A stretch of 32,000 bases of DNA from Bifidobacterium longum subsp. longum JCM 1217 (lineage in GTDB: Bacteria > Actinomycetota > Actinomycetes > Actinomycetales > Bifidobacteriaceae): NCBI RefSeq assembly GCF_000196555.1, contig NC_015067.1:690001-722000 (forward strand), read 5' to 3'. Of the stretch, positions 1 to 4,714 are shown in pieces. The translations under genes were made by a program, and so were the position numbers. The notes below the pieces were generated by a model. The model was given only the letters and a program-made list of their open reading frames with translations, made no database searches and was not told where the DNA came from. Position 1 is the stretch's first letter, and every line of letters starts with the position of its first letter.

Positions 1-820
1 AGGATTCCCGGTCAAGCACTGTATCACGGGACGCCTTCTTGTCGAATATTTCCAGAATCGAATATGAGAAGTTTCGGATGATGTGCTCTGCCCCGTACTG
101 GTTCTTCAACTCGATCATCTCCTTGTTGCCGCCGGTCGGGTCGGAGAGGTTCGCGTAGGATGACCATCGTGTCCATAGGCCATCGGCGTCACTGGATGCG
201 CTCCCCACGTATAGCCGTCCTGTGCTCCGGTCTGTAATCACATATACCGCCTTTACGCTGGATAGAGCGTCATGCCATTCCGGTTCGTTGTGGTTGATGA
301 TGTCCTGTAACTCGCCGTGCGTGAGACACACGTGATCGTATCCGTTGAATGCTCCGAGCTTCGTCCGTGGCGAGATCTCATACACTTCAGGATCCAGTTG
401 CGCCTGTATATTCGCGTATTTGCGTAGATACAAATCACGCCCAATGGGTTTGTTGAGACGAATTACAAGTCTTTTCCGATATTCGGAATACTCATCCATT
501 AGAGTTAGCTCATATCCATATATGTTCCATTGTCCCGGGGCTGCATCTCGTACATGGTATAGACCGCCAAAGATGAAGTACTCTGGCCCATATCGATAGT
601 ATTGGGCGAACGCGAACAAGTACTTCCTGCCTCCCATATTGCCGTTTGGTTGCTTGGTTTTCCAGGCGTTCATGATCAGCCAATCCGGGTCGTCATGTAG
701 CAATAGATTCCATGCTGGTCGTGACCGGTCGTTCGGGTTCATGTTGAACTTAATCTTTGCCTGATCTGGTTTGTCGAAGTGGAACAGATCAGTGAGTTTT
801 ATTGGCATTTGCTCTGTCAT
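1..820 (-). CDS. GIY-YIG nuclease family protein: unassigned ~190-aa N-terminal domain plus C-terminal GIY-YIG domain; partial, C-terminus lies beyond the window edge
   Basis: Missing from the ORF track only because it has no stop inside the window. I read the minus-strand frame codon by codon from nt 829 to nt 2 and found no stop. An in-frame TAG at 830-832 closes it upstream. Start candidates are ATG 826, 820 and 808; AGGAG (827-831, minus) sits 6 nt from ATG 820. Translation begins MKMTEQMPIKLTDLFHFDKPDQAKIKFNMNPND. The C-terminal part has GIY-YIG signatures KAVYVITDRSTGRLYVGSA, GLWTRWSSYA, GGNKEM and NFSYSILEIFD. The gene is visibly more AT-rich than the core genes. Confidence 0.8.
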   Translation of the reverse strand, partial: MTEQMPIKLTDLFHFDKPDQAKIKFNMNPNDRSRPAWNLLLHDDPDWLIMNAWKTKQPNGNMGGRKYLFAFAQYYRYGPEYFIFGGLYHVRDAAPGQWNIYGYELTLMDEYSEYRKRLVIRLNKPIGRDLYLRKYANIQAQLDPEVYEISPRTKLGAFNGYDHVCLTHGELQDIINHNEPEWHDALSSVKAVYVITDRSTGRLYVGSASSDADGLWTRWSSYANLSDPTGGNKEMIELKNQYGAEHIIRNFSYSILEIFDKKASRDTVLDRES

Positions 821-905
821 TTTCATCTCCTAAGGTAACGTTTGAACTTTTCGTTTGTTGCAGAGTGCGCTACCGCGCCAGTTATAAAAGAAAACGTGAG
901 TCTCT

Positions 906-1439
906 CTACCTGAGTATTTCGTAAATGAATCCGTCGTGTAGCTTGACGGCGATCTTGTCGTAGCGGGAGTCATCGGGGTGCTCTTCCATCGCATCGTGGG
1001 CGGCGCACAGTCGTTGGATGTCGCCACCGATCAGGTTCCGTTTGCTGAAGAGGTCACTGGCGTGCTTATGCATTGCCTTGGCGACGCTGTTCTTGCTGTC
1101 TCCTTGGTGGATTGCCCATGCGGCGACTACCGCCAGTTCATGGTCGAGGGCTTTCTTGAGTTCCGATATCAGCAGCACTTGGGCGACGTGATGGCATAGT
1201 CCGTTGTCGTACTCCGGAGACAGGGGCATCACTATGCGGCCGTTCTCTCGTTGTATTGGCATGACAGCCGTCTCTGCTTCCAGCTGTTTGGCTAAATCAG
1301 TGGACGCTTCATCGACTTGGTCGAGAAGATCGAGAACCATGTTGTGCATGAGTTTGCTGTAATAGGCGCTGTTCTCGATTTCCTTGAGAACTCGCATGTT
1401 ATCTCGCGTGTGTTTCTGCGGTGATTCCAGCCGTGCCAT
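906..1439 (-). CDS. hypothetical 177-aa protein, first gene of the operon containing the GIY-YIG nuclease gene
   Basis: ORF track 906..1439. GGAGAAGGGA lies a few nt upstream of the ATG. It is co-oriented with the nuclease gene, about 85 nt upstream of it. Composition looks helical and acidic (DLLDQVDEASTDLAKQLEAE). I recognise no family motif; only a weak R-x4-H string (RLCAAH) is present. Confidence 0.6.
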   Translation of the reverse strand: MARLESPQKHTRDNMRVLKEIENSAYYSKLMHNMVLDLLDQVDEASTDLAKQLEAETAVMPIQRENGRIVMPLSPEYDNGLCHHVAQVLLISELKKALDHELAVVAAWAIHQGDSKNSVAKAMHKHASDLFSKRNLIGGDIQRLCAAHDAMEEHPDDSRYDKIAVKLHDGFIYEILR

Positions 1440-1507
1440 AGGAGTCCCTTCTCCAGAACAATTCTATATGAATATGGTACCCAGAAAAACTTTGGGGAAT
1501 TAGCTGA

Positions 1508-1532
1508 TTGACGAAAGGATGGACATCGTCAA
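1508..1532. promoter_or_regulatory. 7-bp inverted repeat TTGACGA-n11-TCGTCAA in the divergent intergenic region; candidate operator
   Basis: The perfect inverted repeat was read directly at 1508-1514 and 1526-1532. It lies in the 138-bp gap between the divergent cargo operon and the pra-like/RHH/tra operon. Its function is inferred only. Confidence 0.25.
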
Positions 1533-1577
1533 GGGAGCGCACAGAGCGATCCCGAAAACCAGAAAGGCGGCGGTCAT

Positions 1578-1976
1578 ATGCCACGCAGGAAAAGCTATAC
1601 AACTGTCGAAGGATTTCAGAGCCTTGATCAGCATCTCATTGCCCAGCAGATGATTCCCCTGAGGGTTGATGCGAAGCAGGGCGATTGGGATGCCGAGACC
1701 AAAACCAATGCGCAGAAGACCAATGCGGACGGCGTACCCCAGTGGCTGATCCAGACCTTGTTCCAGCCAATCGACGGTGATGCAGAGCATGTGCCCGAGG
1801 TCGTGCCCGTTACCGTGACGGCCAAGGTGAAACCCGTCATCCGTGTGGGGGCTCCGGTGGAATTTGTTGGATTCGGCGCATGGGTTTACGTCTCCCACGA
1901 CAAGACTACGAAGCAGGTCACGTCGGTGAGGCGCAGCTTCATGGCCGCCGGGTTCAAACAGAACGGTGGTGAATGA
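1578..1976 (+). CDS. AICE Pra-like protein (plasmid replication/integration/excision activator-like), tentative
   Basis: ORF track 132 aa. The sequence pattern DGVPQWLIQTL...VPVTVTAKVKPV...GAPVEFVGFGAWVYV resembles, from memory, small actinobacterial Pra-family proteins encoded next to tra/rep genes. The start could instead be the internal ATG at 1650. The stop overlaps the next ORF's start (ATGA). Confidence 0.45.
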   Translation: MPRRKSYTTVEGFQSLDQHLIAQQMIPLRVDAKQGDWDAETKTNAQKTNADGVPQWLIQTLFQPIDGDAEHVPEVVPVTVTAKVKPVIRVGAPVEFVGFGAWVYVSHDKTTKQVTSVRRSFMAAGFKQNGGE

Positions 1977-2146
1977 TGATGGGGCGTAAGACCAGTATCA
2001 CGGTCCGTATCCCCATTGACCTGCTGGACCGGTTGGACGCGTACGGGGAATCCGAATTCGGTCGTCGTTTTGATCGGAGCATGTTCGTCGTGGAAGCGGT
2101 AATGGATCGGCTGAATAATATCACGGAAGGAATCCATCATGGGTGA
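1973..2146 (+). CDS. ribbon-helix-helix (CopG/Arc-type) DNA-binding protein, 57 aa
   Basis: Below the ORF-track size cut-off; translated by hand as MMMGRKTSITVRIPIDLLDRLDAYGESEFGRRFDRSMFVVEAVMDRLNNITEGIHHG*. ITVRIPIDLLDRLD followed by two helices is the classic RHH layout. Its start overlaps the previous stop (ATGA at 1973-1976). Its stop (2144-2146) overlaps the tra ATG (2139) by 8 nt. Confidence 0.65.
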   Translation: MMMGRKTSITVRIPIDLLDRLDAYGESEFGRRFDRSMFVVEAVMDRLNNITEGIHHG

Positions 2147-3245
2147 CGTGTTGTTCTGGCCGGCGCTGACTTTGATTGTCTGCGTCGCGGCCGTGGTCTT
2201 TATCTTGGTCGTGCGGTTGCGGAAACTGCGCCATACGATTGAGCATCACATGCCTGAAGCGGTCGTGCGCCGCGATGGTTGGGGCTGTCGCGCGATTGCC
2301 CTACCCGGCCGTCGGATCTGGCTGGTGCCGACCGACATCGCCGAGCAGCAGGCGATGGACGCGTTGAAGGAGACGGCGAAGGCGTACCCCGGCTGGATCC
2401 CCTCGCATCGGATGATGGGACGTGGTACGCGGGCATACTGGTTGCTGTCCGTCCGCCGTCCGGTGCGGAAGATAATCCGTCGCGAAGATATACCGGCGGA
2501 GAAGGATCCGGCCCATTACGTCTGTATCGGTCTCAACTTATCTCGCAAGCCGGTCATGATCCGTAGCGACGCGCACACACTGGTCATCGGCTTGACAGGC
2601 AGTGGCAAGGGCAGCATCATGGCGACTTACGTCGACGGACTTTCGCAGCTGTATGAAGACGGCCTCGTCCAGTTCTGGGGCATCGACCTCAAAGGCGGCG
2701 TCGAAATGTCGGTGTACGGCACTCTCTTTGATTCCCACCACGCCTATACGCTCGACGACGCCGTCGCTCTCCTGCAAGATCTGTCTACCGAATGCGACCA
2801 CAGAATGGACAGTCTGCGTGGGCGCGCGCGGGAGCTGCCGCCGACGCCCGAGTATCCACGAATCGTCCTGCTGATCGATGAAGCCGCCGAGCTACACGGC
2901 AAGGCAGATAGGAAGAAGAGCGAATTGGTCACGCGCTTGCTGGACTCGATCCTCAGACGTGGGCGTGCGCTCGGCATCGTCGTCGTGGCGCTCAGTCAGG
3001 ATCCACGTGTCGAATCCGTCCCGCTGCGGGCACGGTTCCCGCAGCGCATCGCCCTCCGGTTGAACAGCGAGGAGGAAACCGCCATGTTGCTCGGCAAGGA
3101 GGCGATAGATAGGGGAGCGGCACCTTGGCTGATCGCTCCCAACCAGCAGGGATCCGGATTCGTCTGGAACCAAAACATGGGAACAATCGACTATTTCAGG
3201 GCGCCGTGGTATGGCGACGACGACCTGATGGAACTGGGCGCGTAG
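2139..3245 (+). CDS. FtsK/SpoIIIE-family DNA translocase (TraSA/TraB-type conjugative transfer protein)
   Basis: N-terminal TM segment VLFWPALTLIVCVAAVVFILVV, Walker A GLTGSGKGS and Walker B VLLIDEAAEL. A size of about 370 aa with a single TM is typical of AICE transfer ATPases. Confidence 0.85.
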   Translation: MGDVLFWPALTLIVCVAAVVFILVVRLRKLRHTIEHHMPEAVVRRDGWGCRAIALPGRRIWLVPTDIAEQQAMDALKETAKAYPGWIPSHRMMGRGTRAYWLLSVRRPVRKIIRREDIPAEKDPAHYVCIGLNLSRKPVMIRSDAHTLVIGLTGSGKGSIMATYVDGLSQLYEDGLVQFWGIDLKGGVEMSVYGTLFDSHHAYTLDDAVALLQDLSTECDHRMDSLRGRARELPPTPEYPRIVLLIDEAAELHGKADRKKSELVTRLLDSILRRGRALGIVVVALSQDPRVESVPLRARFPQRIALRLNSEEETAMLLGKEAIDRGAAPWLIAPNQQGSGFVWNQNMGTIDYFRAPWYGDDDLMELGA

Positions 3246-3252
3246 GCGCTGT

Positions 3253-3299
3253 GAGAACCCCGCCGTCGGAGCGATGCTCGCGCAGGCGGCGGGGTTCTC
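3253..3299 (+). other. 13-bp-stem hairpin between tra and rep (terminator and/or rep-proximal origin structure)
   Basis: GAGAACCCCGCCG (3253-3265) pairs perfectly with CGGCGGGGTTCTC (3287-3299). The loop holds a small GAGC-GAT-GCTC hairpin. No T-tract follows, so it is not a classic intrinsic terminator. Confidence 0.4.
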
Positions 3300-3384
3300 T
3301 ATACCCAAAATTCGGTCATTGAAGCCCGGCTGCTCTTGATTATTAGATCCAAATCTCACCGAATACCCTGAAAGGAGGTGCATT

Positions 3385-4635
3385 ATGCCCCGGATAACCG
3401 TCCGCCGACACGGCGCAAGCGCATCCATTCCACACGTCGGGGTGCATAATGGCACACTCCAATCAGACCCCACAAGGACGGCGAACAGGGGATGGACTCC
3501 CGCCGTCGCCCGGCGGAATGCGCAATTCCTCCAGCGGGTGGATTTCGGCATGATGGAAGGCATACCGTATGCGCTGACGTTGACGTTGCCGGCCAAAAGC
3601 ATGGAACGTGTGACGCCCGACTTACTGCACCGCCTCATCGACGTCATGCTCAAATACCTTGCCAGAAGGGGAATGAAGCACTTCCACTGGGTCATTGAGT
3701 TCACCGCCAAGCACATGCCCCACGTGCATATGACCGTCTGGATGTCCGATACGCACCAGCGGTGGAATCCGAAAACCCATCAGCACGAAACCGTGGACAA
3801 CGACCTTGTTACGGTTACCGGCATCGTTGTCGGCAAGTGGCTGGATGTGACAGCCGACTGTGGGATACATACCTCCGGACAATCGCAGGACGTGCAACTG
3901 TTGGACGGCAACGCTGCATGGCTTTCATATGTCGCCAAGCACACTCAACGCGGAGTCTGGCACTATCAGAGGGCGTTGGAGAACATGCCTTCCACGTGGA
4001 AGGAGAACCCGGGCGCGATGTGGGGACACTCCCGGAAAATTCCTCTGACCGAGGACTCCGTTCTTCCCGCCGATCTGCATGCCTTTCATCAATTCCGTCG
4101 TGAAACCCGGAAATGGTGTTGTTCGCAGGCCTCACGGATAGCTGACCCGAAACGTCGGGCAAAGGCCATCCAGCAAGCGCGGCGCATGAACCGATGCCCG
4201 ATACGGGAACTGTCCGTTGTGCGTCCGATCTCGATATGGATTCCGCGAACGGTGTCAGCGGCGATCATTAGAGGATTGCGGTCGCGCGGATACATGATCG
4301 GTCGTGACGTTTACGAATGGGTGATATCAGAAATGGATCGATTGCGTGCGACCGGTGACGATCCTGACCGGATGCGGGCGCTCCAACGGACATTTGCGGA
4401 AATGATGCGGGGGGTGAACATCATGGCGATCGTCATCCCCGAAATCCCACTCAAGGACAAGCTCACGCTCACGGTGCCGGAGGCGTCGGCCCTTTCCGGC
4501 ATCCCATACAAGATCGTCAACGCCGCCGTCAAGAACGGCAACCTCGCCGCATGCTACGCCGGCAGCTCCACCGTCCGGATCCGACGTTCCGACCTCGACG
4601 ACTGGGTGGCGGCCTTGCCATCCGACTGGTGTTGA
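3385..4635 (+). CDS. HUH rolling-circle replication initiator (RepSA-like) with in-frame C-terminal excisionase/MerR-type HTH domain
   Basis: Strong RBS AAGGAGGTG upstream of ATG 3385. The HUH motif PHVHMTVW is at nt 3721-3729. The catalytic-Tyr context AWLSYVAKHTQRG has Tyr at 3928-3930. The last 70 aa (from ATG 4423) read MAIVIPEIPLKDKLTLTVPEASALSGIPYKIVNAAVKNGNLAACYAGSSTVRIRRSDLDDWVAAL, a typical Xis-type HTH. Confidence 0.8.
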   Translation: MPRITVRRHGASASIPHVGVHNGTLQSDPTRTANRGWTPAVARRNAQFLQRVDFGMMEGIPYALTLTLPAKSMERVTPDLLHRLIDVMLKYLARRGMKHFHWVIEFTAKHMPHVHMTVWMSDTHQRWNPKTHQHETVDNDLVTVTGIVVGKWLDVTADCGIHTSGQSQDVQLLDGNAAWLSYVAKHTQRGVWHYQRALENMPSTWKENPGAMWGHSRKIPLTEDSVLPADLHAFHQFRRETRKWCCSQASRIADPKRRAKAIQQARRMNRCPIRELSVVRPISIWIPRTVSAAIIRGLRSRGYMIGRDVYEWVISEMDRLRATGDDPDRMRALQRTFAEMMRGVNIMAIVIPEIPLKDKLTLTVPEASALSGIPYKIVNAAVKNGNLAACYAGSSTVRIRRSDLDDWVAALPSDWC

Positions 4636-4644
4636 AACACAAGA

Positions 4645-4668
4645 AGACCCCGGAGAAATCCGGGGTCT
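4645..4668 (+). terminator. intrinsic terminator after rep
   Basis: AGACCCCGGA-GAAA-TCCGGGGTCT is a perfect 10-bp stem, followed by CTTTGT. T-rich sequence also follows it on the opposite strand. Confidence 0.7.
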
Positions 4669-4681
4669 CTTTGTATGCCAA

Positions 4682-4701
4682 TTGGCTACCGTTTGGCTAC
4701 C
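4682..4701. repeat. direct repeat TTGGCTACC x2 (11-bp period) at the element/chromosome junction
   Basis: Read directly at 4682-4690 and 4693-4701, between the rep terminator and the glnA terminator hairpin. Its function (att core or recombinase arm site) is not established. Confidence 0.3.
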
Positions 4702-4714
4702 CTTAGAATCAAGA

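Follow-up and report, generated by a model that had tools for sequence, protein, structure and literature searches.

Uzume, whose single protein is UzuA, is modelled in PADLOC and DefenseFinder and reportedly goes back, as a single-gene system against phages, to Millman et al. 2022. Its experimentally validated representative is reportedly the protein of Bacillus sp. FJAT-27231, and the validation is reported to have been made against the hydroxymethyluracil phages SPO1 and SP82G, which is not used as evidence here. The literature describes Uzume as a single-gene system with a GIY-YIG-like domain and lists its mechanism as unknown. It is among the most prevalent defence systems in Staphylococcus borealis, is mostly plasmid-borne in the Bacillus cereus group and, according to a preprint on Bifidobacterium, occurs in about 80% of B. 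adolescentis genomes and in less than 10% of B. longum genomes. Here we analysed a stretch of 32,000 nucleotides from Bifidobacterium longum subsp. longum JCM 1217 (NC_015067.1, positions 690,001 to 722,000; hereafter the window), the left end of which carries the genes of a 177-aa protein and of a GIY-YIG nuclease. The original prediction, made from the sequence of the window, had presented these two genes as an undescribed defence, exclusion or toxin-immunity module carried on a conjugative element. Our analysis supports this view in part. The prediction was right about defence cargo and about an integrative element, and wrong in calling the system undescribed and a two-gene module. Taken as a whole, the reading that we consider quite probable is that of a lone UzuA carried as defence cargo behind a 177-aa gene that belongs to the backbone of an integrative element.

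The layout of the locus was as originally described. The two genes are co-oriented on the minus strand and separated by 85 nt (821-905): the open reading frame (ORF) 906..1439 encodes the 177-aa protein exactly as quoted before, and the nuclease frame runs from an ATG at position 820 to the left edge of the window, where it leaves the window after 273 open codons, at base 2. All the nuclease strings quoted in the prediction (KAVYVITDRSTGRLYVGSA, GLWTRWSSYA, GGNKEM, NFSYSILEIFD, FAFAQYYRYGPEYFIFGGLYHV and YGYELTLMDEYSEYRKRLVIRLNKPIGRD) lie in this frame. The pair is divergent from the operon of 132-aa, 57-aa, FtsK and Rep genes that starts at 1578, and it is AT-richer than its surroundings (G+C content (GC) of 0.496 in the nuclease gene and 0.541 in the 177-aa gene versus 0.61 in the whole window). 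The part of the element beyond the left edge was reconstructed from identical contigs, of which L001 served as the reference for coordinates; this extension recovered the C-terminus and gave a full nuclease of 289 aa, 16 codons of which are outside the window. The exact 177-aa protein is recorded in 1260 blocks of the assembly collection, and the same arrangement was seen in eight long contigs. The two proteins are on record as BLLJ_0544 and BAJ66211.1 of B. longum JCM 1217, and the literature searched does not mention BLLJ_0543 to BLLJ_0546. The features of the window discussed below are the following.

1..820, minus strand: uzuA (Uzume), codons 1-273 of 289, an open frame whose last 16 codons and stop lie past the left edge
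266..820, minus strand: N-terminal domain of UzuA, residues 1-185, family-specific, delimited by conservation and the AlphaFold2 (AF2) model
1..256, minus strand: GIY-YIG domain of UzuA, residues 189-273 in the window, with the domain ending at residue 289, delimited by the I-TevI alignment and Foldseek
821..905, minus strand: spacer of 85 nt at the junction of backbone and cargo, with a ribosome-binding site AGGAG at 827-831, from the sequence and the limits of homology
906..1439, minus strand: 177-aa backbone gene of the BLLJ_0544 type, an ORF
1440..1577, no strand: divergent intergenic region with a conserved motif before the 177-aa start codon, from alignment
1578..4635, plus strand: backbone operon of the 132-aa gene, the 57-aa ribbon-helix-helix (RHH)-like repressor, the FtsK/SpoIIIE (TraB-like) translocase and the fusion of Rep with a helix-turn-helix (HTH), from Pfam, NCBIfam and PHROGs matches
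4677..4704, no strand: att-like imperfect direct repeat that bounds the element on the side of glnA, from a repeat search in L001 and the window sequence

The domain scans, which covered Pfam, NCBIfam, PHROGs and PADLOC, directly supported the family membership of the nuclease. Already the truncated window protein matched the PADLOC UzuA model PDLC03973 (E=1e-43), and the full-length protein matched it with residues 7-289 over profile positions 3-278 of 278 (E=2.5e-50), as well as a second PADLOC model, PDLC03974 (E=2e-38), and, from end to end, phrog_26160 (E=2.9e-88). The PADLOC run that had been proposed as a check thus called the nuclease UzuA (Uzume) by PDLC03973. As judged from these profile matches, the nuclease is a canonical member of UzuA, the one protein that makes up the named system Uzume. 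That the pair could be matched to no named system is not supported, given this whole-profile match: Uzume had been catalogued in Bifidobacterium genomes before, and the nuclease itself is not new. The window protein shares with Uzume the full-length profile match, a size of about 285 aa and the architecture of a family-specific N-terminal domain followed by a C-terminal GIY-YIG domain, and its gene is likewise stand-alone, with no conserved partner, on a mobile element. No family-defining difference was found; the window copy belongs to a bifidobacterial clade that is about 56-59% identical to the Staphylococcus clade. Among the 752 homologues, many are full-length and 56-59% identical proteins of Staphylococcus, Enterococcus and Salinicoccus, which are annotated only as "GIY-YIG nuclease family protein", and the genome scans placed UzuA in Bacillota, Actinomycetota, Bacteroidota, Elusimicrobia, Melainabacteria and Mycoplasmopsis.

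Full-length relatives of 31% identity were also seen in the Klebsiella phage or phage-plasmid records MK422451.1 (40534-41322) and CP058330.1 (83415-84203). Together with the match to a PHROG of unknown function, these phage-encoded relatives indicate that Uzume-like genes are therefore also carried by phages. In two Microbacterium genomes, genes of a third type, PDLC03975 (L061:7036-7959(-), 307 aa, E=9e-85; L062:6877-8178(-)), are convergent beside a PDLC03973-type UzuA, and between this third type and the window protein no similarity could be detected (BLASTP E>4). The name UzuA may cover heterogeneous, co-localising families.

The nuclease domain could be assigned by both profile and structure, in agreement with the proposal of a GIY-YIG nuclease with a family-specific N-terminal domain. 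The conservation of UzuA was evaluated in an alignment of 16 diverse homologues, and the profile built from it aligned residues 190-286 with the I-TevI catalytic domain in 1LN0 and 1MK0 (E=1e-5), the latter being the E75A mutant of that domain. When AF2 models were searched with Foldseek against PDB and BFVD, the top PDB matches of UzuA were again 1LN0 and 1MK0 (probability 1.0, target template modelling score 0.62-0.66, E of about 9e-3), and among the BFVD matches listed, those with a description were nearly all GIY-YIG, homing or intron-associated endonucleases, with alignments of about one domain at most. The Pfam GIY-YIG model gave E=0.001 in the window UzuA and 4.9e-8 in a Staphylococcus homologue. 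In the 16 homologues Y193, Y204, Y222, E272 and N287 were invariant and R218 nearly so. Y193, Y204, E272 and N287 correspond in the alignment to I-TevI Y6, Y17, E75 and N90. R218 and Y222 were assigned from the established R-x3-H/Y spacing of I-TevI R27/H31 and UvrC R39/Y43. The alignments directly support the integrity of this set, and UzuA retains all of the I-TevI-type GIY-YIG catalytic residues (Y193, Y204, R218, Y222, E272 and N287). The catalytic Glu had earlier been sought in the ILE string (E257); the I-TevI alignment points instead to E272 in RESYW, at window bases 5-7, and E257 is invariant all the same. The catalytic Asn, N287, is outside the window.

The kinship with I-TevI raises the question of whether the nuclease is a selfish free-standing homing endonuclease instead of a defence gene. 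The I-TevI catalytic domain is its nearest solved relative and shares with it the Y, Y, R, H/Y, E, N set, models of group I intron endonucleases and homing endonucleases match it weakly, Klebsiella phages and prophages have homologues, and the gene stands alone among unrelated neighbours across phyla at high identity. The domain order, however, is reversed relative to I-TevI-type enzymes: the catalytic domain of UzuA is C-terminal, lacks their linker, and is accompanied by no NUMOD, IENR or HTH module in the Pfam and NCBIfam scans, nor was there an intron or intein context. Moreover, the entire protein matches a family curated as anti-phage defence, and defence genes (methyl-directed restriction endonuclease (REase), WYL, IetA and PDC candidates) are found among its neighbours. 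We consider homing very improbable as an explanation and retain the assignment to Uzume.

The GIY-YIG core is preceded by 189 aa, close to the 190 or so first estimated. In the AF2 model of UzuA, which has two domains and a mean predicted local distance difference test score (pLDDT) of 78.8, the N-terminal domain is mixed beta/alpha with pLDDT of about 75-92. Its 185 residues are as conserved among the 16 homologues as the nuclease domain, with K22/K24/N26, W37, W47, AQYYxYGP, FGG and K116/R117 as conserved features. No named domain could be assigned to it, as had been stated from the sequence: there was no Pfam match, and in the Foldseek searches of PDB and BFVD the alignments were confined to the GIY-YIG domain. 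When the N-terminal domain alone was used as a query, the 120 best hits were all proteins of similar length, most of them with a GIY-YIG Pfam match, and gave no sign of domain shuffling. Between the domains, residues 150-162 (window 335-373) form the only internal stretch with pLDDT below 50, and they carry the invariant L155, G156, F158, G160 and Y161. This segment may be a functional loop for gating or DNA contact.

In the reading that we prefer, UzuA would act alone, with no partner. Its C-terminal I-TevI-like domain would cleave DNA as the effector step, and the conserved 185-aa N-terminal domain would provide target recognition or gating. Because UzuA has no methyltransferase, it would need to discriminate between self and phage, and phage DNA might be told from self either by a feature of that DNA or by activation during infection. 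The GIY-YIG REases of type II restriction-modification systems include Eco29kI, Cfr42I and Hpy188I. A system of this kind was rejected for the window: no methyltransferase adjoins uzuA, which is followed just by MmeI C-terminal and S-subunit-like fragments.

An analogy for such action is offered by CMoRE/PD-T4-3, the only single-protein GIY-YIG defence enzyme whose action was found characterised in the literature consulted. It is a GIY-YIG type IV restriction endonuclease that is specific for DNA with 5-hydroxymethylcytosine or its glucosylated form (5hmC/5ghmC) (PMC12923530; PDB 9U75). Like UzuA, CMoRE is a single-polypeptide anti-phage GIY-YIG nuclease with a non-catalytic second domain and no methyltransferase. 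The order of the domains is opposite, however, with the nuclease N-terminal and the sensor C-terminal in CMoRE and the nuclease C-terminal in UzuA; the sensor domain of CMoRE is unrelated to the UzuA N-terminal domain, Foldseek aligned the two proteins over about 100 columns only (about the length of the nuclease domain, E=0.7-2), and there was no sequence match. CMoRE is a plausible model for the action of UzuA as an analogue and not as a relative. Known modification sensors (the CMoRE C-terminal domain, SRA and EVE) were not among the structures that Foldseek aligned with UzuA in PDB and BFVD.

CMoRE also bears on the idea that UzuA is an abortive-infection effector, inactive until a phage product triggers indiscriminate degradation of host and phage DNA. 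No methyltransferase or other self-protection gene accompanies UzuA, the poorly modelled and conserved loop 150-162 could be regulatory, and a loop keeps CMoRE, likewise a GIY-YIG defence enzyme of one protein, in an autoinhibited state (PMC12923530). On the other hand, CMoRE acts directly on modified phage DNA (PMC12923530). We regard abortive infection as a possible but doubtful mode of action. We would also advance, as a speculation that we hold to be rather unlikely, that the UzuA N-terminal domain, having a fold with no counterpart among solved structures or in the viral library, could be a new kind of sensor for phage DNA, for example for hypermodified bases. Uzume would then be a new modification-dependent (type IV-like) class of restriction. 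As a further part of this speculation, the promoter of the 177-aa gene could provide bifidobacterial elements with a constant site from which exchangeable defence genes are expressed.

Whether the 177-aa protein is a partner of UzuA was evaluated in a neighbourhood sample of 80 UzuA loci from diverse taxa, taking flanks of 6 kb and six-frame ORFs. With a cut-off as loose as E<=10, the profile of the 177-aa family found no match in these flanks, i.e. in 0 of the 80 loci. UzuA had no recurrent partner at all: the 405 flanking proteins fell into 357 clusters, the largest of which had 8 members in 7 loci, and the commonest Pfam or PADLOC family among the 141 immediate neighbours occurred only 5 times. 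No DNA methyltransferase recurred across the 80 loci, and none adjoins uzuA in the window element. The lack of a conserved partner is thus observed directly. Methyl-directed REase-like genes follow UzuA in 5 loci, four of which are from Microbacterium. In seven Clostridia loci (L028, L067, L072, L078, L081, L085 and L090) the gene of a WYL-domain protein precedes uzuA on the same strand within a distance of three genes, and in four of them it is the immediate upstream neighbour; L081 and L090 also have an AAA-ATPase-like gene farther upstream. The association of WYL with UzuA looks like a lineage-specific regulatory one.

Conversely, the 177-aa family occurs with no UzuA in two element types: in L009-L012 from B. 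bohemicum, where a 39%-identical copy lies beside a 493-aa Rep, and in L013-L014, where a 55%-identical copy has the same Rep/FtsK backbone and is followed by an intact 931-aa MmeI-type enzyme. In blastn comparisons the homology between L001 and the UzuA-less L013 ended near the 3' end of the 177-aa gene and restarted at the integrase. Between L001 and L015, an element with UzuA and an XhoI restriction-modification system whose UzuA cluster includes B. bifidum, it continued through the uzuA stop codon and then broke off. At the DNA level the MmeI fragment that follows uzuA does not resemble the intact MmeI gene of L013, and the comparison thus did not show a simple 1-kb insertion. The homology breakpoints, the UzuA-less relatives and the lack of co-occurrence together place the 177-aa gene at the edge of the conserved backbone, and the boundary between backbone and cargo is directly supported.

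These results overturn the proposal of a two-gene operon in which the nuclease is paired with a partner or an immunity protein, and the two families do not co-occur outside bifidobacterial elements, which is what the prediction itself had named as grounds for refutation. The 177-aa protein is not a partner of UzuA, and the two genes do not make up a module. A dedicated system of two components (sensor/effector or toxin/immunity) could still be envisaged at least in Bifidobacterium, as the genes share their orientation and have 85 nt and no terminator-like site in between, a second, diverged type of element preserves their adjacency (80% and 67% protein identity), and the GC of both is below that of the host. 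Yet none of the 80 UzuA loci has the partner, the partner family has no UzuA in two element types, a homology breakpoint falls between the two genes, and Uzume is catalogued as a single-gene system. Base composition also separates them: the 177-aa gene (GC 0.54, GC at third codon positions (GC3) 0.67) is near the 132-aa (0.57) and 57-aa (0.53) genes of the backbone, and uzuA is at 0.50 (GC3 0.59); FtsK, Rep and glnA are at 0.59-0.62 (glnA 0.62). A dedicated pair therefore appears highly unlikely to us, and we keep to a lone UzuA behind a backbone gene.

The 177-aa family is narrow and bifidobacterial, consisting of 11 clusters at 90% identity and of 19 representatives at 50% identity among 1.84 billion. 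As noted from the sequence, the protein has no recognisable motif: Pfam, NCBIfam, PADLOC and PDB profile searches gave no match, and a PHROG of unknown function matched marginally (E=0.002). AF2 gave a weak, helical model of it (pLDDT 63), with which Foldseek returned noise only and no fold match. An HTH-like string, GDSKNSVAKAMHKHPSDLF, is visible by eye, with no tool supporting an HTH. The RLCAAH string had been judged too weak to call HEPN, and we agree: HEPN was rejected, as there is no Pfam or PADLOC profile match and the His of R-x4-H is not conserved, being Tyr or Leu in distant family members. The gene is always divergent from the Rep and transfer genes, with or without UzuA. About 25-40 nt before the start codon of the family, at window 1455-1480, lies the motif GTAC[CT]nTA[CT]T..A.A[AT]AGAA, and GTACnnTAnT...AGAA is conserved in four bifidobacterial element types (including L015, L013 and L009) and in a short metagenomic contig, L098. 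The motif is probably the -10 region or an operator of the divergent promoter region. Because of its constant position divergent from the replication and transfer genes and the conserved promoter-region motif, the 177-aa protein, judged from position only, most plausibly has an element-maintenance or regulatory role. Its divergent 132-aa neighbour was compared with the 131-aa neighbour of a distant member of the family, and no similarity was found.

Several observations weigh against the interpretation that we prefer. The PADLOC match of the nuclease is to a model and not to the experimentally tested Bacillus protein, the match to PDLC03973 is moderate (170 bits over 278 positions), and the PADLOC name UzuA stands for three heterogeneous models. 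Defence by the bifidobacterial UzuA is predicted from sequence, for a system whose mechanism the literature gives as unknown. As to the 177-aa gene, both bifidobacterial element types that carry UzuA have the 177/188-aa gene immediately before uzuA and co-oriented with it, with a gap of 61-85 nt and no terminator-like site found; in the window such a site was searched for in 821-905 and none was seen. The two genes could be co-transcribed or have a lineage-specific functional link, and uzuA could be transcribed by read-through from the promoter of the 177-aa gene. Besides, given how narrow the 177-aa family is, one would expect it to be absent from other taxa anyway, and its function is backed by no homology.

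The element itself is about 9.45 kb long and adjoins glnA. By its gene content it is an actinomycete integrative element of the FtsK/Rep/tyrosine-integrase type, in line with the claim of cargo on a mobile element: the element is predicted to be integrative and of conjugative type, and the nuclease to be a horizontally acquired member of an anti-phage family with no methyltransferase. Starting from the chromosomal glnA, the order is att-like repeat, Rep, FtsK, 57-aa gene, 132-aa gene, divergent 177-aa gene and nuclease, followed by an MmeI C-terminal fragment, an S-subunit-like fragment, a 303-aa protein, IS30-like pieces, the tyrosine integrase and the second att-like repeat. The same backbone gene order is found in relatives. 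The imperfect direct repeats of about 28 nt, TGCCAATTGGCTACCGTTTGGCTACCCT, are 9426 bp apart in L001; the window copy (4677-4704) lies between Rep and glnA, and the second copy (L001:16163-16190) abuts the integrase gene. They are probably attL/attR sites beside glnA and not in a tRNA gene, none of which was found in L001.

uzuA opens a variable slot for defence cargo that reaches to the integrase. Depending on the relative, this slot is occupied by UzuA, by a restriction enzyme of the MmeI type or by an XhoI restriction-modification system. The rest of the slot (L001:11563-14853) contains a 129-aa fragment of the MmeI target-recognition domain and C-terminus, a 183-aa S-subunit-like ORF, the 303-aa protein, which had no matches, and the IS30-like pieces (HTH_38); its restriction genes are decayed. 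In L004, L005 and L007 extra IS21 or Mutator-type transposases are inserted.

On the backbone side, Rep (window 3385-4635) has 416 aa and joins an initiator of the REP_ORF2-G2P type to a C-terminal excisionase-type HTH; the relatives L007, L008, L013 and L015 have two genes in this region, one for a Rep of 342-343 aa and another, of 70 aa, for the HTH_17. The Rep operon is closed by a hairpin terminator (GACCCCGG-AGAAAT-CCGGGGTC with a T-rich tail) that lies before the repeat, and hairpin and repeat together span window 4647-4704. The 57-aa ORF (window 1973-2146) overlaps the start of the FtsK gene and is RHH/CopG-type repressor-like (phrog_876, E=3e-7), which gives the element at least one regulator that can be recognised as such, in addition to the 177-aa protein. 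With the integrative and conjugative elements of actinomycetes (AICEs), the window element shares a tyrosine integrase, an excisionase-type HTH, Rep, a single FtsK/TraB-like translocase, a size of about 9-10 kb and short flanking direct repeats. It differs in lying beside glnA and not in the 3' end of a tRNA gene, has a Rep of the REP_ORF2-G2P type and showed no recognisable kor, pra or nudix genes.

As a discovery the locus is modest, for standard defence-annotation tools recognise the nuclease as Uzume and a record for the genus exists. It also cautions that adjacency alone is a poor basis for inferring a functional pair. The interest that remains lies in the mechanism of Uzume and in an N-terminal domain that has no structural match. 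For the organism, the finding is that of a small integrative element of B. longum whose swap slot is bordered by a backbone gene and the integrase, and this bears on the phage resistance and the poor transformability of bifidobacteria.

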